Shown here: positions 2,037-10,671 of the stretch, piece by piece
Layout: each line of letters starts with the position of its first letter
Position numbering within the stretch: position 1 is the stretch's first letter
Origin: an uncultured bacterium
Lineage (GTDB): Bacteria; Schekmanbacteria; GWA2-38-11; J061
DNA length: 10,774 bases
Assembly: GCA_964549305.1 (NCBI GenBank)
Contig: CAZJVM010000079.1
Location: forward strand, 1-10,774
Direction of reading: 5' to 3'
Position numbers and translations under genes: made by a program
The notes under the pieces: model-generated
Database searches by the model: none
Told to the model about the DNA's origin: nothing
The model's input: only the letters and a program-made list of their open reading frames with translations

Positions 2037-3098
2037 TTATTTGACTATGTCTTTTATCTTTTCCCCCTTATCTTCGGAAAATGCACCTTCGCCTTTGAAA
2101 AGAACATTCCCTTTATTATCAACAAGCAATACATATATGGTCTGCTCGTTTTCTACTCCCAATGCCCTGTTAAATGGCGCCTTATCTATATAGAGAGTGA
2201 TTGTCGCCTCTCTTGCCTTAACATCCTGTATCCCGGAACGCATAGCGTAATTGATGTACCACTGATAGAGAATATTGAGGTTTTCTATAGTTGGAAGCTC
2301 ATAATATTTCAACTTATCGTTATTCGCGGAAAGCGTTTTCGCGAAAGGTAACCAGGTATCCACAAGTTGCTGTTGCTCACGATAATAAGCAATAAAAAGA
2401 AGGTTGAATTCTCCTTCAAAATCACCGGGCAATTTATATTTTTTACCTTCAAGATTTGCCCCGGCAACTTCTGGAAAAATGTAATTCAATTTGGTCTCTT
2501 TATTTTTTTCTCCGAAAGTTGAAATACTCTTAAGCTCAAGAGAAAATTGCCCCTCCTGTTTGTCGGAAATAAGGAAACCCATAGCGCTAATCTTTTTTAC
2601 ATCCAGTTTCGGAGCATCATTTAAAACCTGTCCTCTGAAAGTGGGTATAAAATCCGCGAAAGGAATTTTAACAGTCATCCAATTCCCCCTCTCGGTTAAA
2701 AAAACTGTCTGATAAAGGGTAGTGTCGCGATTATCATCGTTTTTCATATAGAATTTATACTTATTTCCGTCTCCCTTAATTCTCAATTCCACACCTTCAT
2801 AACCGCTCAAGTCATATGAATTTTCTTCATTTATAACGGAGGCAAAACCTCCATAATTATCAAGAGATATATTCCCTGAAAAAACCGCGTTTCTCTCTTT
2901 CGTCATTCCAAAAGTGCTTCTCGATACTCCTCCCATAACTGTATCGTCAACATTTACCCAACCATCCGCATTGCCTGATTTTTCAAAATCTAAAAGAAGA
3001 CTGCTTTTATATTCCATGCTCATTGCAATTCCTCCGTATGTTAATATAAAAATCAGAAATGATGCTGAAATGAATACTCTTATAATCTGATTTATCAT
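2037..3098 (-). CDS. CIA30 (complex I intermediate-associated protein 30)-domain protein fused to a C-terminal ATP10-like thioredoxin-fold domain, with N-terminal signal/TM segment
   Basis: CIA30 motifs WVNVDDTVMGGVS, FSGNISLDNYGGFAS, IKGDGNKYKF, IPFADFIPTFRG, ISDKQEGQFSLE. The C-terminal domain FPEVAGANLEG..LPGDF..VDTW..YYELP..MRSGI..YVLLVDNKGNVLFKGEG resembles bacterial ATP10-like proteins. RBS AGGAG 3110-3106 fits ATG 3098 (the ORF track starts at TTG 3101). An alternative start exists at 3023. Confidence 0.8.
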   Translation of the reverse strand: MINQIIRVFISASFLIFILTYGGIAMSMEYKSSLLLDFEKSGNADGWVNVDDTVMGGVSRSTFGMTKERNAVFSGNISLDNYGGFASVINEENSYDLSGYEGVELRIKGDGNKYKFYMKNDDNRDTTLYQTVFLTERGNWMTVKIPFADFIPTFRGQVLNDAPKLDVKKISAMGFLISDKQEGQFSLELKSISTFGEKNKETKLNYIFPEVAGANLEGKKYKLPGDFEGEFNLLFIAYYREQQQLVDTWLPFAKTLSANNDKLKYYELPTIENLNILYQWYINYAMRSGIQDVKAREATITLYIDKAPFNRALGVENEQTIYVLLVDNKGNVLFKGEGAFSEDKGEKIKDIVK

Positions 3099-3195
3099 CA
3101 ATGAACTCCTCTTTTATTATTAATTACTCTCTTTATTAAATAAAAAATATATTAAAAATACACAAATTAATCATATTTATTCTGTTTTAACTCAT

Positions 3196-3225: not shown

Positions 3226-4068
3226 TTACCTTGCCGCTAAAGTAAAATCCGTAACAGGAGAATTGATTGCTTCTATTGCTTCCTTGTCGCAGGTATGTAT
3301 GAATGAAAAGTGTTTTGACAGGAATTTTTCTGCTTCGCTGAGTGTCAGAAAATTTGCTCCGATTTTCTCAAATATTATATCATATGCTTCTTTTTTACCG
3401 GTGATGTTAAGGTCTTCTACCATTAATAATATGTCAGCAAGAGGTGCTATAGTATCAATACCTTCAAGTCCGGTATATGGGATGCAGAAACGCTCAAAGA
3501 GAAAAACCGGTTTTTTCAGTTTTTGAAACATCTCCCGCGGAACCTCTTTTCTGAAATCCCATTGAAAATCTGATATATCAAACTCAGGATATTTTCCCCT
3601 GAGCATTGCTCCTGTTTCGCTGATTTGAGGTATCTTGTCAGAAATTATTACAGGAACCTCTATTTCTTTCCTTCTCATTTCATCACATATACCGGTGGTG
3701 ACATGTCCTAAACCTGCTCCCACTTCAACAAGCGTTCCGATTTCATATTTGTCTAAAACAGAAGAAACAACATCCATCGTGCCGTCTGCAAATATTTTAT
3801 AAATATCGCTTTCTGCAACCTCTCTGTAAAGATTCTGTATCTCCGGTTTTGACCAGTCCCACTCTTCCTCTTCCATCACAGCAACCATAAATTTTACTAT
3901 AGGAACAAAAATGTCAGGGACTTCATTTTTTTTCACGTCTTCCCCTGCAAGAAGTTTTTCAGATGAGGTAAGGAGAGGTTTCCAATCGCAAAAAGCTTTT
4001 TTTGCCTTATCGCAATACCGCGTCATCGGTGCTTCGATAGCTTCAAGCAATTCATCACGATTAATCAT
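3226..4068 (-). CDS. Class I SAM-dependent methyltransferase-like protein, substrate unknown
   Basis: Motif I-like LVEVGAGLG, acidic residue ending strand 2 (VIISD), FQWDF, LFERFCIPY. AGGGGG at 4080-4075 abuts the ORF-track ATG 4074 and lies 6 nt from ATG 4068, so 4068 is preferred. It starts about 20 nt after the oxoprolinase B stop. Confidence 0.65.
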   Translation of the reverse strand: MINRDELLEAIEAPMTRYCDKAKKAFCDWKPLLTSSEKLLAGEDVKKNEVPDIFVPIVKFMVAVMEEEEWDWSKPEIQNLYREVAESDIYKIFADGTMDVVSSVLDKYEIGTLVEVGAGLGHVTTGICDEMRRKEIEVPVIISDKIPQISETGAMLRGKYPEFDISDFQWDFRKEVPREMFQKLKKPVFLFERFCIPYTGLEGIDTIAPLADILLMVEDLNITGKKEAYDIIFEKIGANFLTLSEAEKFLSKHFSFIHTCDKEAIEAINSPVTDFTLAAR

Positions 4069-4088
4069 ATTCATCCCCCTGTTAATGT

Positions 4089-5663
4089 TTAATCACCGGC
4101 GCTGCCAAATCCCCCTCCGCCGGGAGTTTCGATTCGAAGCACATCGCCTTTTTTTACTCTGTCATAGAATTTGCCGCTTTTATCAATTTCTTCACCTTCG
4201 CGAATAATTGTATTCTTTCCGCATTTGCCTTTCTCTCCACCGTCCAAACCGTATGGCGCGTATTTTCTTCGCTCTGAAATCACAGTCACTTCGGCATCGG
4301 ACAAGAATTCAATTTCTCTTACAATACCGTCGCCTCCGCGGTATTTCCCCTTGCCTCCTGAATCTTTCCTGATGCTGTAGCGCCTCACAATGACCGGGTA
4401 GGAATATTCCATTGCCTCTATGGGAGTGTTTAGAGTGTTTGTCATATGCGACTGCACCGCTGACGCGCCGTTGCCTTCTTTGAACGCGCCCATTCCGCCG
4501 CCGACTGTTTCATAGTAGGTGAAGGTTTTTCCCCTGCGCTCATCGACTCCGCCTATTGCCGTATTATTCATCGTACCCTGCGCCCCTGCGCATATTTCAC
4601 CTGGCATCGCTTTGGAAAGCGCGCCTAAAATCACATCCACTATCCTCTGTGATGTCTCAACATTGCCTCCTGCCACTGCCGACGGAAATTGAGCATCGAC
4701 TATGCACCCCCTCTCCGTTACGAGATTTATCACCTTCATAAGACCCGCGTTTGTAGGCGCGTCTTCAGGCATAAGGCATCTCACCGCGTAAATGAGCGCA
4801 GACAGTGTTATCGCTTTTACAGCGTTTACAGACCCCTTCACCTGCGCCGCGCTACCGGTAAAGTCGGCAGTCAGGCAGTCGCCTTCCACGGTAATCACCG
4901 CCTTTAACTTTATCGATTCCGTACCGACACCGTCATCGTCGAGGAAATCATCGAATTCATAAACGCCGTCTGGTATTCGGCTTATTGTTTTTCGGGCAAT
5001 TTTCTCCGTATAATTCTGAAGCGCGGAAGCGTAAAAGAGCGTTTCCTCTCTTCCGTATTTATCCGCTGTGTCGCGCAACCTCTTTACCCCCGTAAGGTTT
5101 GCCATTATCTGCGCGCTGAAATCCCCCCTGCGCTCTTCCGATGTACGCACATTGCTCGTAATGAGTCTCAACACGCTCTCATCAATTTTATCTTCACGCA
5201 CGAGCAACAGAGGCGGGATTATAACTCCTTCCTGAAATATGGATGTGGATATTGGCATTGATCCGGAAGCCATACCTCCCATATCTGCGTGATGCGCGCG
5301 GTTTGCCACATAGAAATCCGCTTCTTCGCCATCACCGCAGAAAACCGGGGCAACAACCGTTACATCGGGAAGATGCGTTCCCCCCCGAAAAGGATCATTT
5401 ACAACTGCCATGGCACCACGGGACACAGGACATTCTTTGAGGACCGATTTAACGGACAACGGCATCGAGCCCAAATGCACCGGTATGTGCGCCGCCTGTG
5501 AAACCATATCACCCTTTTTATCGAATATGGCGCAAGAATAATCGCGCCTTTCCTTTATATTAGGTGAAAACGAAGTGCGCCTCAGCGTTGACCCCATTTC
5601 TTCAGAAATCGAAGACAACCTGTTTTTAAACACTTCAAGCAGTATGGGATTTACATCAGTCAT
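4089..5663 (-). CDS. hyuB: Hydantoinase B / 5-oxoprolinase family subunit
   Basis: SPNIKERRDYSCA, AHIPVHLGSM, NDPFRGGTHLPD, NRAHHADMGG, GGNVETSQR, MTNTLNTPIEAME, C-terminal TPGGGGFG. Its start overlaps the A-subunit stop by 1 nt (TAATG). Confidence 0.93.
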   Translation of the reverse strand: MTDVNPILLEVFKNRLSSISEEMGSTLRRTSFSPNIKERRDYSCAIFDKKGDMVSQAAHIPVHLGSMPLSVKSVLKECPVSRGAMAVVNDPFRGGTHLPDVTVVAPVFCGDGEEADFYVANRAHHADMGGMASGSMPISTSIFQEGVIIPPLLLVREDKIDESVLRLITSNVRTSEERRGDFSAQIMANLTGVKRLRDTADKYGREETLFYASALQNYTEKIARKTISRIPDGVYEFDDFLDDDGVGTESIKLKAVITVEGDCLTADFTGSAAQVKGSVNAVKAITLSALIYAVRCLMPEDAPTNAGLMKVINLVTERGCIVDAQFPSAVAGGNVETSQRIVDVILGALSKAMPGEICAGAQGTMNNTAIGGVDERRGKTFTYYETVGGGMGAFKEGNGASAVQSHMTNTLNTPIEAMEYSYPVIVRRYSIRKDSGGKGKYRGGDGIVREIEFLSDAEVTVISERRKYAPYGLDGGEKGKCGKNTIIREGEEIDKSGKFYDRVKKGDVLRIETPGGGGFGSAGD

Positions 5664-7639
5664 TATATCCTTTCAATTATAACATTATATTCATCATCTA
5701 TTCCGGCTTTCCATCGCGGCGGAATAAATGTGGTTGCGCTGTATTCAACTATAACCGCGGGGCCTTCTAAATTGTTTTCGGGCAGTAATTTTTCACGGTC
5801 ATAAAATTTCGCGTTCATCTTCCGCGACTCATAAAATATTTCACCTTCGCCAATCAGAGAAATTCCCTTTTCATTATTTTTCACCTTTCCGCTCACAGGC
5901 GCGCTTTCTCTTTTGCCGGACACCCTCAATCTTAAATTCACTATTTCACAAGGCACACCGCTGTGACTGTATCCGTACAAACGTTTATGAAGCGAATGAA
6001 AACGTTTCACATAATCATCGCTGAAGGGAACGACAATTTCGTAAGACTGCCCCTCAAAACGCATATCAACATATTTTTTAAAAGTGAGTTTCTCTTCCTT
6101 AAAACCCTCCTTAGCCATTTCAACACCACCCCTTTGGCAAAGAGGAGAAAATCTGTTTTCAATATCATTGAAGGAGGTAGCATTTTCTTTGAGCATTACA
6201 GTAATCGAATAATCCTTTACAACATCTGCCTTGAGCATCCCCACAGCCGACAAAAGCCCCGGTGCATATGGTATGATTACACCTTTCATTGAAAGATTAC
6301 CGGCAAGGGCAACTGCGTGGAGTCCGCCTGCGCCTCCGAATGACACAATAGAAAATTCGCGAAGGTCATATCCTCTCTCGATGGATATTACACGTACCGC
6401 TTTTTCCATTTCTGCATTTGCCACTTCAACTATTCCTTCGGCAAGCGTGAAGGGGTCGATTCCGGATTCAGACGATAATTTTCCGATAGCTCTTTGCGCC
6501 CTTTCCGGGTAAAGCTTCATTTTTCCGCCGAGGAAATAATCCGGCGAGAGACGTCCGAGAAAAAGATTCGCGTCTGTTACGGTTGCCCTGTTTCCTTTGC
6601 CGTAACAGGCAGGACCCGGGTCCGCGCCCGCGCTTTCAGGCCCGACTCTCAGAGCGCCTCCTCCGTCAATCCTCGCAATAGAACCACCTCCCGCGCCAAC
6701 AGTGTGGATGTCTATCATAGGTACTTTTACAGGCATACCGGCAATAGCAGATTCGGTAACTATTGACATATCTCCGTCAACAAGGGAAACATCCGTTGAA
6801 GTGCCTCCCATATCGAAGGTTATAATTTTATTCTTTCCGGCCTTTTTTGCTACATCCAAAGCCCCCACGACACCGCCTGCAGGCCCTGAGAGTATTGTCC
6901 TTGCAGATTCATCCATTGCCGTATCCGCCGATATACTTCCGCCGTTTGACTGCATTATTCTCAGTAAATCATCTTCGGAGAGGTTGCTCTTGAGAAATGA
7001 AATGTATTTCTTCATCACGGGCGACACATAGGCATTCACGACTGTAGTGGAAGTTCTTTCATATTCTCTGAATTCCGGAATAATGCGGTGCGAGGCAGAA
7101 ACAAAAAGCCCTCTTCTTTCGCATTCCTCTTCCACAAGCTTTTCGTGTTTCGGATTTATAAAGGAATAAAGAAAGCAGACTGCGACAGATTCAGCGCCCT
7201 TTTCTACTGCTTCTGCAACAACTGCTTTTATCTCTTCATTATGGGGAGACTTCAATACTTCTCCGTCGCAGAGGACTCTCTCCTCAAGGGACAGTCTTCG
7301 CTCCCGCGTAATGAGAGGTGCATCTTTTTTATATTTAAGGTTGTAAAGCTCTTTTCTTTGTTGTCTTCCTATTTCTATAACATCTTCGAACCCGCCTGTT
7401 GTTATGAGCGCGGTAACGGCGCCCTTTCTCTCGAGCAGCGCGTTGGTGGCAACAGTTGAGCCGTGAATGACGGTTTTTCTTTTTTCCATCGATATTGCAT
7501 CGAGGCCTCCGCATACGGCTTCCGCGGGATTTGAGGGCGTTGAAAGTATTTTAAATGTTTTGAGTTTCCCTTCGTCCATATAGACGAAATCGGTGAATGT
7601 GCCTCCCGTATCCACGCCGACTAATATATGGTCTTTCAT
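5663..7639 (-). CDS. hyuA: Hydantoinase A / 5-oxoprolinase family subunit (ATP-binding)
   Basis: GVDTGGTFTD, HGSTVATNALLER, EFREYERTSTT, LSGPAGG, DMGGTSTDV, GAGGGSIA, GPESAGADPGPACYG, GGAGGLHA. GAGGGAG RBS-like sequence upstream. Confidence 0.93.
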   Translation of the reverse strand: MKDHILVGVDTGGTFTDFVYMDEGKLKTFKILSTPSNPAEAVCGGLDAISMEKRKTVIHGSTVATNALLERKGAVTALITTGGFEDVIEIGRQQRKELYNLKYKKDAPLITRERRLSLEERVLCDGEVLKSPHNEEIKAVVAEAVEKGAESVAVCFLYSFINPKHEKLVEEECERRGLFVSASHRIIPEFREYERTSTTVVNAYVSPVMKKYISFLKSNLSEDDLLRIMQSNGGSISADTAMDESARTILSGPAGGVVGALDVAKKAGKNKIITFDMGGTSTDVSLVDGDMSIVTESAIAGMPVKVPMIDIHTVGAGGGSIARIDGGGALRVGPESAGADPGPACYGKGNRATVTDANLFLGRLSPDYFLGGKMKLYPERAQRAIGKLSSESGIDPFTLAEGIVEVANAEMEKAVRVISIERGYDLREFSIVSFGGAGGLHAVALAGNLSMKGVIIPYAPGLLSAVGMLKADVVKDYSITVMLKENATSFNDIENRFSPLCQRGGVEMAKEGFKEEKLTFKKYVDMRFEGQSYEIVVPFSDDYVKRFHSLHKRLYGYSHSGVPCEIVNLRLRVSGKRESAPVSGKVKNNEKGISLIGEGEIFYESRKMNAKFYDREKLLPENNLEGPAVIVEYSATTFIPPRWKAGIDDEYNVIIERI

Positions 7640-7743
7640 TACAACTCACTCCCTCTATCTTAAAATTAAACATACCATTTTTAGATGAAATAATTTATAT
7701 AATTTGAATAAATATCAATGGCGCTTATCAGGAGGGTAAATGA
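7640..7743. promoter_or_regulatory. AT-rich divergent promoter region shared by hyuA-like and hemF-like genes
   Basis: 104-bp gap between head-to-head genes. TATAAT at 7698-7703 (+) with no clear -35. RBS AGGAGG at 7730-7735. Confidence 0.5.
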
Positions 7744-8508
7744 ATGTCCAAAATTAAGGAAGTTGATAGTTTCTTTGAAGAGCTTACAAACCGCGCGCTC
7801 GGAGAATTCGCAAAGATCGACCCTATGGGAATCACAACAAAAAGAAAATGGGATACCGAACTGGGACTTATGGAAGTGCGCCTTTTTATGGGCGAGGTTT
7901 TCGAAAAAGCGGGCGTAAGTTACTCCGCTCTGAAAATTAAACTTCCCAACACGGATACCGGGGCGGATGTGCGCGTTTTTGAAATTCTCACCTATATGGC
8001 AAATCCCAAAGTGCCCACTCTTGCAATAAGTTTGAGATACAGAGCAAACGGAGGCGAAAAATTTATGGGTCTTTGCGATATATCCCCTTCCATCGCTATT
8101 GACGAAGACCTTGATTATTTCGGACAGGCAATGAAAGGGCTTTGCGAAAAACACGGCAAAAAATACGATGATATGCTCAAGCGTCTCAATTATCTTTTCA
8201 CTTCAAAATACACCGGCAAAACCGTACTTGGCGGAAGAGGAATCGCTTTTGACCTCGAAGATGACGGATTTGATTTCTTCAAAGAGTTTGGAGAGCTATT
8301 CCTCGACACATCGCTTGAAATTATCAAAAGAAGAAAGGACGAAGAATTCACACTTCAGGATAAGGACAAACAACTTCACGACAGAGGAAAATGGGTTGAA
8401 TTCAATCTTACGGAAGACAAGGGGTTTATTTTGGGTGTAAAAGTAGGCATACCGCCCGAGGCAATGAATTATCAGACACTGCCTCCGGTAGCAAAATTTT
8501 ATCCGTAG
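7744..8508 (+). CDS. Divergent HemF-like protein (oxygen-dependent coproporphyrinogen III oxidase fold); canonical activity doubtful
   Basis: Collinear HemF signatures: GEVFEKAGVSYS, NPKVPT...LRY, DISP, IIKRRKDEEFT, QLHDRGKWVEFNLTEDKG, TLPPVAKF. Many normally invariant residues are substituted. RBS AGGAGG lies 8 nt upstream. Confidence 0.8.
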   Translation: MSKIKEVDSFFEELTNRALGEFAKIDPMGITTKRKWDTELGLMEVRLFMGEVFEKAGVSYSALKIKLPNTDTGADVRVFEILTYMANPKVPTLAISLRYRANGGEKFMGLCDISPSIAIDEDLDYFGQAMKGLCEKHGKKYDDMLKRLNYLFTSKYTGKTVLGGRGIAFDLEDDGFDFFKEFGELFLDTSLEIIKRRKDEEFTLQDKDKQLHDRGKWVEFNLTEDKGFILGVKVGIPPEAMNYQTLPPVAKFYP

Positions 8509-8545
8509 AGGGGAAGAGATGTACCCTTTTTCCTGCCCTTACTCC

Positions 8546-8600
8546 CTGGATTATCCGGTCAAGCCGGATAATGACAAATAAAAGAGTAGCGGACAATGAC
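8546..8600 (-). repeat. REP-like palindromic element (GTCAT-TATCCGG-CTTGA-CCGGATA-ATCCAG on the minus strand, 8546-8575) plus a partial tandem copy
   Basis: Perfect 9-bp stem 8550-8558/8564-8572. CGGATAATGAC (8565-8575) recurs as CGGACAATGAC (8590-8600). Matches the element at 2-31. Confidence 0.75.
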
Positions 8601-8683
8601 GGAAAAAAGCAACCAATCTTCCCGTTAGCAATGCGAACAAGATATACAAAAGTGAACATATCAACCTTTATTTCAGTTTCTGA

Positions 8684-8713
8684 TTGACATCATCCTTATT
8701 ACTTTTTTATAGT
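8684..8713 (+). promoter_or_regulatory. Sigma70-type promoter for the flavin reductase-like pair
   Basis: TTGACA (8684-8689), 18-nt spacer, TATAGT (8708-8713). RBS TAAGGAG at 8731-8737 precedes ATG 8745. Confidence 0.65.
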
Positions 8714-8744
8714 CAGAGAATTCAATTCAATAAGGAGATATTCA

Positions 8745-9617
8745 ATGTCCCACAAATTTGAAGAGATCAGAATTCTTGATAATTTTTACCAGACTTCAAG
8801 CTTCTTTCCTATGCCTGTTATGCTCATAAGCACTATTTCCGAATCGGGAGAAACCAACCTTGGTCCCTACTCTCTCTGTTTTCCAAAAATAATCACAGGC
8901 GGCAAGGGACACGCGATGCTCTTAATATCGCGCGGTACAAGCAACACCGCGCAGAACATTTTAAGGACAAAAGTATGCTCCCTGAATTTTATTCCCGACA
9001 AGAAAAAATATCTTAAAAACTGCGTTATGCTCGGTTTTCCCGGTGAAACTACAGAAGATAAGATGAAAAACAGTATCTTTACATTGTTACCTTCTACGAA
9101 AAAGTCTGATTCGAAAGATGCCCCCAATAACGGAAAATTCCCTGATATAGTAAAGGAGGCGTTTCAGGTCTTCGAATGCACCTGGGACGATTCATACCCC
9201 CTTAAACATAATGATGAGCTTGTGGAATCACATTTTCTTCTTCGCATAGACAAGATTCTGCTCAGGAAGAAATGGAAAGATTCACTCTTCAAGGGCAAGG
9301 GTTTTCCGCGCATACCAATTGATTACGGTTACAGGGATAATGTGAGATTTTGGTTTACAAGACATTCACAACCATTTGCCGTGCCTGTGCCACAGGACAA
9401 AGAAAACGCCGTTGAAGTTGTAAAATATGCCTGCGACCGTTTTGACCCTGATATTAAATGGGAGGACGATGCCTGCGCGAAGATAGTCAAGGTGCCGAAC
9501 ATTTTCCTGAAAAAAGTAATCGGAGGTGTAGTAAAAGCGGCGCGCGAAGAAGGTGTCACTGTTATAACTCCTGAATTTATGGACAAGATTCAGGATAAAA
9601 GGTCATCAGACAAGTAA
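8745..9617 (+). CDS. Flavin reductase-like (DIM6/NTAB, FMN-binding split barrel) protein with C-terminal PCP_red-like domain
   Basis: PMPVMLISTISESGETNLGPYS, SNTAQNILRTKVCSLNF, IVKEAFQVFEC. The C-terminal IKWEDDACAKIVKVPNIFLKKV..AAREEGVTVITPEFM (about 9450-9600) matches the W-x2/3-A-x3-h-x-K-h-P...G-x3-IT pattern of the BchB/ChlB C-terminal domain. Confidence 0.78.
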   Translation: MSHKFEEIRILDNFYQTSSFFPMPVMLISTISESGETNLGPYSLCFPKIITGGKGHAMLLISRGTSNTAQNILRTKVCSLNFIPDKKKYLKNCVMLGFPGETTEDKMKNSIFTLLPSTKKSDSKDAPNNGKFPDIVKEAFQVFECTWDDSYPLKHNDELVESHFLLRIDKILLRKKWKDSLFKGKGFPRIPIDYGYRDNVRFWFTRHSQPFAVPVPQDKENAVEVVKYACDRFDPDIKWEDDACAKIVKVPNIFLKKVIGGVVKAAREEGVTVITPEFMDKIQDKRSSDK

Positions 9618-9645
9618 AGGCAAACAATATTTCAAGAGGTTGAAA

Positions 9646-10470
9646 ATGAAAAAAATAGTTCCTATCAAACCCTTCTGGTATTCCGATGTAGTCGTGTTTC
9701 CAAAGATGATAACTATAATCACCACTATAGACAAGGAAGGCAAAGTCAATGCTGCGCCCTATTCCTTCTTTATGCAGTACGATGTTATGAATAAGAATCC
9801 ACGCGTTATTGTTGGAATGAGAAAATTCACTCACACTTATAAAAATATAGAAGCAACAGGAGAGTTTGTAGTAAATTTCCCTACTGCCGACTATCTCGAG
9901 GATATGATGGAAACCTGCCGTTTCTATCCCGAAGGAGTTAATGAGCTTGAACATACTCGCTTTACTGAAATACCATCACAGAAGGTAAAACCGCCGAGCA
10001 TCAAGGAGTGCGGGCAAATTATCGAGTGTTCCCTTGACCGGCAATATACTCTCGATAAAACGCAGGGACAGGTCATCGGAAAGATTGAGGCAATCGTGAT
10101 GGATGAGGAATTAATAGATTTGAGGCGCGATGAGCGTTTCAGAAAACTTAACCTTCCCATAGGGTTGGGAGACGAAAAGAGAAAATATTTTTATTACGGG
10201 CACATCGGGGATATCGAGATGATTAAGCTGAAAGCACCGCCAAAGGAAGATGAGTTTAAAGGAGAGCTTAAAACCACGATGAATTGGGATAAGGAAGCGC
10301 TCGACGGAGTCCGTCAAATCCCCTCTGCCATACAGGAAATGGTCATAGAGATGACTGAAGACATAGTTCAAAAAGAAGGTGCCGAAAACGTTACAAACGA
10401 AAGGTTTCAAAAACTTATCGAAGAATACGCGCCACCTGATATGCTCGACCGATTTGATAAGGATGAGTAA
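9646..10470 (+). CDS. Flavin reductase-like (DIM6/NTAB) protein with C-terminal PCP_red-like domain; paralogue of the upstream gene
   Basis: PKMITIITTIDKEGKVNAAPYSFF, HTYKNIEATGEFVVNFP, PSQKVKPPSIKEC..IEC. C-terminal MNWDKEALDGVRQIPSAIQEMV..EGAENVTNERF (from 10279). RBS AGAGGT 9635-9640 favours ATG 9646 over the ORF-track TTG 9640. Confidence 0.85.
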   Translation: MKKIVPIKPFWYSDVVVFPKMITIITTIDKEGKVNAAPYSFFMQYDVMNKNPRVIVGMRKFTHTYKNIEATGEFVVNFPTADYLEDMMETCRFYPEGVNELEHTRFTEIPSQKVKPPSIKECGQIIECSLDRQYTLDKTQGQVIGKIEAIVMDEELIDLRRDERFRKLNLPIGLGDEKRKYFYYGHIGDIEMIKLKAPPKEDEFKGELKTTMNWDKEALDGVRQIPSAIQEMVIEMTEDIVQKEGAENVTNERFQKLIEEYAPPDMLDRFDKDE

Positions 10471-10560: not shown

Positions 10561-10671
10561 TTATGAGATTTTCTTTCTTATGATAATCCCTGCAAGTCCG
10601 CCTAAAAGAAGCAAAATGGTGGATGCCTCAGGCACAGGATTTGAAGGAGGAAGCAGATTCTCATCTATCAT
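10561..10671 (-). pseudogene. Orphan PEP-CTERM-type sorting-signal fragment (36 aa)
   Basis: My translation is MIDENLLPPSNPVPEASTILLLLGGLAGIIIRKKIS*: a VPE[P>A] motif, hydrophobic TM segment, basic tail, then stop. An in-frame TGA (10672-10674) lies immediately upstream, and there is no RBS or signal peptide. Confidence 0.65.

Follow-up and report, generated by a model that had tools for sequence, protein, structure and literature searches.

The 10,774-base stretch of DNA analysed here, referred to below as the window, is the entire contig C79 of the 2.94-Mb genome bin G000 (169 contigs, 41% G+C) and encodes, on its plus strand, a HemF-like protein followed by two flavin reductase-like proteins, FR1 and FR2. 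Head to head with this trio, across a spacer of 104 bp, are hyuA, hyuB and a gene encoding a 282-aa protein. A first-pass annotation had read all six genes as one candidate cluster for the modification or catabolism of tetrapyrroles or bilins. The gene calls uphold its six genes, their coordinates and the divergent arrangement, and Pfam and NCBIfam scans of 10 window open reading frames (ORFs) likewise revealed no further hem, bch or cob gene. The tetrapyrrole reading itself survives in part: the plus-strand trio gains comparative support, whereas its inclusion of hyuAB and the methyltransferase-like gene fails. The features of the locus are as follows.

3226..4074, minus strand: 282-aa methyltransferase-like protein (ExGAGxG motif I and Atlas neighbours)
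4089..5663, minus strand: HyuB (PF02538, 681.9 bits, E 6.7e-205)
5663..7639, minus strand: HyuA (PF01968, PF05378, PF19278)
7640..7743: divergent spacer of 104 bp between hyuA and the HemF-like gene (gene calls)
7744..8508, plus strand: HemF-like protein (PF01218, 98.4 bits)
8546..8578: REP-like dispersed repeat, hairpin with a 9-bp stem (blastn)
8684..8713, plus strand: sigma-70-like promoter match ahead of FR1, the highest-scoring in the region (consensus match alone)
8745..9617, plus strand: FR1, FMN split-barrel with a C-terminal helical PCP_red-like tail (sub-threshold Pfam matches, Foldseek)
9640..10470, plus strand: FR2, Flavin_Reduct with a PCP_red-like tail (PF01613, PF08369)

No 16S gene was found in bin G000, and the close homologues of the window proteins carry the NCBI name 'Candidatus Schekmanbacteria'. 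The G000 loci scanned are of anaerobe type, with aldehyde:ferredoxin oxidoreductases (AFOR), many radical-SAM genes, DUF362 and rubrerythrin, and show no photosynthesis genes. Comparisons were made with five Schekmanbacteria genomes (G000 to G004, with G003 from the same genus as G000) and with 401 genomes sampled from the phylum of G005 and G006, some bins of which are labelled Desulfobacterota or Deltaproteobacteria at NCBI. A metagenome search with the HemF-like alignment added two loci (L064 and L065), and a search of genome contigs with FR2 as a single protein added three. Contigs from four sequencing runs, 100-850 bp in length, come mostly from near-identical strains and do not provide independent synteny.

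The HemF-like protein and the expansion of its fold

The product of 7744..8508 matches PF01218 above Pfam's cut-off, and PF01218 is the only one of the two families of this fold superfamily reported for it, there being no match to PF05996, the family of the ferredoxin-dependent bilin reductases (FDBR) and red chlorophyll catabolite reductase (RCCR). The profile match ends at position 269-270 of 294-295, and the equivalog NF003727 of canonical HemF, the coproporphyrinogen oxidase (CPOX), is not reached (114.6 bits versus a cut-off of 297). On the same model the nine PF01218 copies of G000 score 26-161 bits and canonical-type representatives 275.9-408 bits, three of the latter (275.9, 288.6 and 296.5) falling below 297. 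The alignment shows that 22 of the 49 columns invariant in 12 canonical HemF sequences are kept. Four histidines are essential in E. coli HemF, and all four conserved histidines are replaced here (H95->Y84, H105->A94, H146->G127 and H176->Y156), as are Asn107 (N107->S96), Arg177 and Arg181; Arg98, Asp112, Arg214, Asp225 and the EFNL motif are retained. The Asp112 column is invariant both in the 12 canonical sequences and in a 25-sequence HemF-like alignment, and the residue is kept in 17 of 19 HemF-like rows of a second alignment. Passages of a study of human CPOX describe His258 as catalytic and Asn260 and Asp282 as intolerant to change (bioRxiv 10.64898/2026.07.02.735896). By our own mapping from the motifs, Asp112 would be the equivalent of Asp282, and the histidine column aligned with Ala94 is taken to be that of His258.

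An AlphaFold model of the HemF-like protein (pLDDT 94) gave, with Foldseek, TM scores of 0.87-0.88 to CPOX structures (3ejo, 3e8j, 5eo6 and 8t7w; E ~5e-15) and of 0.5-0.6 to PcyA, PebA and RCCR (E 1e-4 to 2e-3); each of the 34 matches at E <= 0.001 is a CPOX, an FDBR or an RCCR. The model and the alignments support the view, already taken in the first-pass annotation, of a remodelled HemF fold: a non-canonical member of the CPOX/FDBR/RCCR fold that lacks the HemF catalytic signature. A tree places the 12 canonical HemF in a single clade (support 100/100, branch length 2.06) with all HemF-like rows outside it. The HemF-like rows are deep and diverse, and each of six G000 copies has an outside representative of its own as partner, a pattern suggesting that the paralogues are old and did not arise by recent duplication. 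The close subfamily is rare: among 538 matches at E <= 1e-3 in a library of 1.84 billion proteins, only three reach 1e-30. Public annotation names the homologues 'coproporphyrinogen III oxidase'.

The G000 genome has nine matches to PF01218 at E <= 0.001, seven above the Pfam cut-off and none a canonical HemF, and 17 matches to PF05996, 13 above the cut-off. There are thus ~26 proteins of one fold, HemF-like and FDBR-like, in a 2.9-Mb genome whose gene content is of anaerobe type. In the remaining four Schekmanbacteria genomes, PF05996 is matched 13, 8, 3 and 3 times. Examples of the PF05996 matches in G000 are listed here.

C7:32177-32848
C7:39985-40647
C28:17895-18470
C28:22859-23440
C9:55816-56388
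C123:137-808

On C9, a HemF-like paralogue is immediately preceded by a bilin-reductase-like gene, which itself follows a NIR_SIR/ferredoxin gene. To our knowledge, no bilin activity has been assigned to any Schekmanbacteria paralogue of the CPOX/FDBR fold. Schekmanbacteria sequences fell in the RCCR outgroup of a published bilin-reductase tree, in which context CPOX is noted to share the fold, and the whole fold is viewed there as having arisen only after oxygen (Rockwell et al. 2023, PMC10151467); the passages of that paper on these sequences do not mention the HemF-like expansion or FR partners. No description of an expansion of the CPOX/FDBR fold or of the FR families was found in the open-access literature.

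The neighbours of the 24 CPOX/FDBR-fold genes in G000 that have a gene call were surveyed, four genes to either side. Recurrent neighbours are AFOR-like genes (4), GGR-like FAD genes (4), TonB receptors (3) and DUF169 genes (3). Small Fer4 ferredoxin genes adjoin three of the 24, some of them PF05996 genes, and their cluster has a DUF362-Fer4 fusion as its fourth member. The AFOR-like tungsten-enzyme genes adjoining a CPOX/FDBR-fold gene are at these positions in G000.

C30:15112-17923
C66:8278-11253
C25:31360-35447
C101:84-2636

At the C66 position, a UbiD-like gene is a further neighbour. Elsewhere in the set, an ORF in G001 (L045:4941-7076, on G001:C42) encodes a fumarate-reductase/succinate-dehydrogenase flavoprotein with a C-terminal HNH endonuclease domain.

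Orthologues of the window HemF-like protein are present in G004 (67% identity) and on the two metagenome contigs (66-67%), and at all three of these loci a TonB-dependent receptor gene lies upstream of the HemF-like gene. In G004, an FR2 orthologue (71%) is encoded 6.6 kb from the HemF-like orthologue, divergent from a run of UbiD, MFS, pilin, receptor and HemF-like genes, and in G002 a Flavin_Reduct gene is divergent from a HemF-like gene ~0.8 kb away.

FR1, FR2 and their neighbours

FR2 scores 75.8 bits on Flavin_Reduct (PF01613), above the gathering score of 27, and FR1 16.6 bits, below it. The FR1 model, however, matches FMN split-barrel reductases (4z85, 1eje, 2d5m and 3cb0) with E values of 1e-9 to 1e-6, the best being 3.6e-9, and the two proteins share 22% identity over 280 residues (tblastn E 4e-8). 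By sequence for FR2 and by model for FR1, both are members of the Flavin_Reduct/FMN split-barrel family, which includes NbaA, HpaC, flavoredoxin and CobR, and are predicted to bind flavin. They differ from these known members in having, at the C-terminus, an extension whose last part is a helical module of ~45 residues resembling the C-terminus of BchB/ChlB, and FR1 differs further in its degenerate score and in having four invariant cysteines. Across 38 family sequences of 60-88% identity, C45, C78, C93 and C145 do not vary and C244 hardly does; they may form a metal or Fe-S site within the flavin-reductase fold.

The tails match PCP_red (PF08369) over positions 1-43 of 45 with 24.4 (FR1) and 25.1 bits (FR2) against a gathering score of 32.5 (E ~2-3e-5). 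The tail is helical in the FR1 model, and precomputed PF08369 matches are present on many FR2 orthologues (most of the members listed) and on some FR1 orthologues. In the five Schekmanbacteria genomes, the module occurs on four different redox scaffolds, C-terminally on Flavin_Reduct and DUF169 proteins and N-terminally on NIR_SIR/ferredoxin and FMN_red proteins, and therefore does not mark tetrapyrrole proteins specifically in this setting. It resembles a portable module, helical in structure, that redox proteins share. Of the five copies in G000, three (those of FR1, FR2 and the C8 DUF169 protein) adjoin a HemF-like gene. The carriers of the DUF169, NIR_SIR/ferredoxin and FMN_red types are at these positions.

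G000 C8:35336-36304
G000 C7:5155-6150
G000 C54:9306-10214
G004:C2:100835-101770

The earlier description of FR1 and FR2 as flavin reductase-PCP_red fusions is thus correct as to the split-barrel fold, but both tails and the FR1 domain score below threshold, which makes these calls weaker than first put, and PCP_red is unspecific. The two families are large, well conserved and uncharacterised. FR1 gathers 4332 clusters at E <= 1e-3, the best 120 of the 4332 being 60-100% identical, and FR2 534 clusters, the best 120 of the 534 being 54-87% identical. Source names in both include Desulfobacterota, Deltaproteobacteria and Gammaproteobacteria, with Spirochaetota in addition for FR1, and the JGI label of both is 'flavin reductase (DIM6/NTAB) family'. 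No FR1 orthologue was found in the other four Schekmanbacteria genomes.

Among the 401 sampled genomes, PF05996 is present in 13, weak HemF-like (PF01218) matches in 11, FR1 in 10 and FR2-like proteins (E <= 1e-30) in 9, and the FR1, FR2-like and HemF-like sets lie wholly within the 13 FDBR-rich genomes. Each of these 13 has 6-7 scored PF05996 matches and 7-27 first-look candidates. Outside Schekmanbacteria, 14 FR1 loci were found in 11 genomes, and nine have an FDBR-like, HemF-like or BchN/B-like neighbour. A bilin-reductase-like gene is within the examined stretch of six (L086, L103, L104, L114, L116 and L118), a HemF-like gene is near FR1 in one (L102), and in two (L106 on G042:C8 and L120 on G296:C3) FR1 lies between two BchN/B-like pairs, together with genes for a CbiX-type chelatase, a GGR-like flavoprotein and MarR. 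The FR1 proteins of L106 and L120 form a subgroup of 64-65% identity, a true PCP_red domain (42-49 bits) is present on three of the four B-like subunits, and several genes of the BchN/B-like cluster are split in L120. To judge from gene content, each of these two loci, in bins of the G005 phylum, resembles a cluster for tetrapyrrole modification. For FR2, a single-stranded run in G268 (L123, G268:C147:21000-24200) reads TetR, bilin-reductase-like, FR2 (66%), LCM-type methyltransferase, MoxR/Mg-chelatase-like AAA and VWA. Conserved neighbourhood and co-occurrence had been proposed as the check on the original cluster, and by both locus and genome FR1 and FR2 are linked with HemF/FDBR-fold genes in the G005 phylum, whereas a link to hyuAB and the methyltransferase-like gene is not supported. 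The locus evidence for the link between FR1 and the fold is stronger than the genome-level co-occurrence.

Gene order varies between the FR1 loci. Their other neighbours include FadH/OYE-like proteins (6), PNPOx-type split barrels (5), alpha/beta hydrolases (5), DUF1302/DUF1329 outer-membrane proteins (5), NmrA-like reductases (3) and Ycf48-like BNR proteins (3). As described in passages of PMC10769871 and 10.64898/2026.06.10.731317, the gut enzymes BilR and BilV are bilirubin reductases of the OYE family, and an HGDR motif defines BilR. These passages provide a precedent for flavin-dependent anaerobic bilin reduction and place bilQ, a MarR regulator, beside bilR, as MarR is likewise beside FR genes in L083, L106 and L120; unlike BilR, which belongs to the OYE family, no window gene does. 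The FadH-like neighbours of FR1 were considered as BilR and rejected, all six having HGHEGYL rather than HGDR; by analogy, they could nevertheless work similarly.

Within the window, the spacer separating the HemF-like gene from FR1 (8509-8744) holds the REP-like repeat and a TTGACA-18-TATAGT sequence (11 of 12 positions) at 8684-8713. The repeat, of ~30 nt with a hairpin at ~8546-8578, was proposed as a REP element from the sequence, and blastn bears this out with copies of 24-34 nt, and one 18-nt match, on at least 10 other contigs. The copies are often at contig ends and so probably break the assembly. A second short dispersed repeat is at 8619-8649. The promoter that had been proposed for the flavin reductase pair corresponds to a sequence that is present, but promoter-like sites in the region are no more numerous than expected by chance (7 observed versus 6.8 expected), and the matches within the 104-bp divergent spacer are weak (9 of 12). 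As contig C79 ends 304 bp past FR2, the trio may be incomplete. A 36-aa ORF at 10561-10671 (minus strand) ends in what we take to be a PEP-CTERM-like sorting tail (VPEA, a hydrophobic stretch and RKK) and may be a remnant, or the 3' end of a gene running to the contig end.

hyuBA and the 282-aa gene

HyuB and HyuA are full-length members, by Pfam, of the superfamily that includes hydantoinases, oxoprolinases, caprolactamases and acetone carboxylases, matching PF02538 (HyuB) and PF01968, PF05378 and PF19278 (HyuA) throughout. In an NCBIfam scan, the caprolactamase models gave the highest scores (alpha, HyuA, 516 bits; beta, HyuB, 259 bits; cut-offs of 1000 bits), the acetophenone carboxylase models scored lower, no 5-oxoprolinase model was matched and no equivalog cut-off was reached. 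From these matches, HyuB and HyuA are identified as the beta and alpha subunits of an ATP-dependent enzyme of the hydantoinase/oxoprolinase/caprolactamase family. HyuB is present in a single copy in G000.

The 282-aa protein has no Pfam or NCBIfam match. It has a motif I, E117-x-G-A-G-x-G123 (ExGAGxG), that is kept in three homologues, its nearest Atlas clusters are class I S-adenosylmethionine (SAM) methyltransferases (score 0.96), and a 30%-identical homologue matches Methyltransf_33 at 1e-7. It probably has a class I SAM-methyltransferase fold; the motif and the Atlas neighbours favour the original methyltransferase call, but with no family-model match that call is weaker than it was stated to be.

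The comparisons separate these genes from the trio and also from each other. In G003, the gene order is LTXXQ, M12, HyuB, HyuA and then the contig end, with neither the 282-aa gene nor the CIA30 gene between M12 and HyuB, and with a HyuA 61% identical to that of the window. HyuA is present in two of the five Schekmanbacteria genomes, and homologues of the 282-aa protein (~30% identity) in three of the other four (G001, G003 and G004), always at other loci and in two of the three cases directly behind a DUF362 gene. HyuAB orthologues of at least 50% identity are present in two of 10 FDBR-rich genomes tested (G209 and G239; 50-53%), next to unrelated genes (sulfatase, UPF0047, amidohydrolase or ApbA) and on contigs with no listed FDBR-like, HemF-like or FR match. 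No hyuAB genes were found near the HemF-like orthologues of G004, L064 and L065, and no tie of hyuAB or of the 282-aa gene to tetrapyrroles was found in the neighbourhood comparisons. The proposal of one conserved six-gene cluster is consequently not borne out, its parts being separable in G003 and in other genomes, and a link of hyuAB and the methyltransferase-like gene to the trio finds no comparative backing in the gene order of G003, the distribution of HyuA or its neighbours elsewhere. The window would then be three separately inherited units lying side by side: the trio; hyuB-hyuA, as a stand-alone ATP-dependent hydrolase of lactam or hydantoin type that would belong with the left-hand genes for an LTXXQ chaperone and an M12 protease; and the 282-aa gene, presumably placed beside hyuBA recently. 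The CIA30-domain protein of the window (2037-3101, minus strand; 175 bits) has a weakly ATP10-like C-terminal half, and its gene is missing from the syntenic place in G003.

Candidate substrates of the trio and their significance

With the substrate deduced from the fold and from the neighbours, we consider that there is about an even chance (~0.5) that the HemF-like, FR1 and FR2 proteins constitute a reductive system that is driven by flavin and has imported compounds of tetrapyrrole type as its substrates. The trio would be a fragment of a larger system in which tens of paralogues of the CPOX/FDBR/RCCR fold work with low-potential electron donors, namely flavin reductases, small ferredoxins and AFOR-like enzymes. 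In this proposal, the HemF-like protein would no longer carry out O2-dependent decarboxylation and would bind a porphyrinoid or bilin-type ligand through a pocket with the kept Arg98, Asp112, Arg214 and Asp225. The ligand is probably imported, as the HemF-like orthologues follow a TonB-dependent receptor. FR1 and FR2 would transfer electrons, taken from NAD(P)H or ferredoxin, to the ligand or to its carrier, with the BchB-C-terminus-like helical tail possibly serving as a docking or lid module.

Several observations weigh against this proposal. The trio is interrupted by the REP-like repeat and by a separate promoter-like site, and no FR gene is adjacent to the closest HemF-like orthologues sampled (G004, L064 and L065). 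In an RpoB tree with 10 negative genomes, 11 FDBR-rich rows form one clade (G296 was omitted, its gene being split, and the G370 row was unusable, being a wrong ORF with ~20% identity and a very long branch); the 13 FDBR-rich genomes are therefore essentially one lineage, and their co-occurrence amounts to approximately one evolutionary event in addition to that in Schekmanbacteria. Five of the 14 FR1 loci (L101, L105, L115, L117 and L119) have none of the three tetrapyrrole-type neighbours. FR2 is also not bound to the CPOX/FDBR fold, as a gammaproteobacterial bin (G007) has an FR2 of 61% identity and no PF01218 or PF05996 match, and at two further FR2 loci MarR and MFS are the sole neighbours shown. 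Finally, AFOR, UbiD and OYE/FadH-like neighbours fit non-tetrapyrrole substrates too.

This last point leads to a serious rival, somewhat unlikely in our estimate, in which the fold has become a general scaffold for binding or reduction in bacteria of anaerobe-type gene content, and the substrates of FR1, FR2 and the CPOX/FDBR-fold paralogues are non-tetrapyrrole compounds such as quinones, aromatic acids, isoprenoids or further hydrophobic molecules with conjugated systems. The neighbours that would suit such substrates also include the NmrA-like and alpha/beta-hydrolase genes, DUF1302/DUF1329, SDR and sulfatase; the FadH-like neighbours have HGHEGYL in place of HGDR, the high number of paralogues suggests many substrates, and the HemF catalytic residues are lost. 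What speaks for tetrapyrroles instead is that the solved structures matched at E <= 0.001 are all of tetrapyrrole enzymes, that Asp112 is retained across the HemF-like alignments, that one FR1 subgroup lies between PCP_red-bearing BchN/B-like pairs accompanied by the chelatase and GGR-like genes, and that small ferredoxin genes adjoin FDBR-like genes, as ferredoxin-dependent bilin reductases would predict.

It is very improbable that the six genes together make up a single catabolic pathway for bilins or phyllobilins, with reduction followed by HyuAB opening of a lactam ring and methylation by the 282-aa protein. In its favour, cyclic amides are what enzymes of the HyuAB family hydrolyse, the divergent genes are separated by 104 bp, and a short contig of a near-identical strain in run X1 spans the junction of hyuA and the HemF-like gene; that contig, however, may be from the same population and so is not independent support. 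G003 keeps hyuBA with LTXXQ-M12 and has no 282-aa gene there, the three Schekmanbacteria genomes that lack HyuA retain HemF-like and FDBR-like genes, the few HyuAB orthologues in FDBR-rich genomes have unrelated neighbours and hyuAB is not near the closest HemF-like orthologues, so that the idea of ring-opening and methylation is not supported by the comparisons. Also very improbable is a housekeeping role, with a divergent but working coproporphyrinogen oxidase for haem and two generic flavin reductases downstream by chance, as the Pfam score and the public and JGI annotations might suggest, since the score is far under the HemF equivalog cut-off, the four histidines are lost, none of the nine paralogues is canonical, the scanned loci are of anaerobe type and FR1, FR2 and HemF-like proteins are confined to FDBR-rich genomes among the 401 sampled.

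The fate of the remains of chlorophyll, haem and phycobilins in anoxic sediments is little known, and gut BilR and BilV were the only defined anaerobic bilin reducers found in the literature. With its ~26 fold proteins beside ferredoxins, AFOR-like enzymes, TonB receptors and two flavin-reductase families, G000 offers a large candidate enzyme repertoire, for whose HemF-like members 'coproporphyrinogen III oxidase' is a misleading annotation. Extending the tetrapyrrole reading of the trio, we suggest, tentatively and as a doubtful generalization for the present, that sediment bacteria possess an undescribed, oxygen-independent means of taking up and reducing tetrapyrrole remains, through tens of CPOX/FDBR/RCCR-fold paralogues each working with low-potential reductases. 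If so, the hosts of this pathway would be Schekmanbacteria, one lineage of the G005 phylum and perhaps others, and it would serve degradation or as an electron sink, with breakdown products of haem and chlorophyll, and phycobilins, as candidate substrates. The dedicated flavin partners in the pathway would be FR1 and FR2, with the BchB-like tail docking on the pigment pocket or forming a cap over it. On this view, the HemF-like proteins would not be decayed copies of HemF but relatives of it that are both ancient and anaerobic, which would bear on the view, as put in passages of PMC10151467, that the fold originated after oxygen, and HemF and bilin-reductase relatives from anaerobe-type genomes could provide a test of that post-oxygenation origin.

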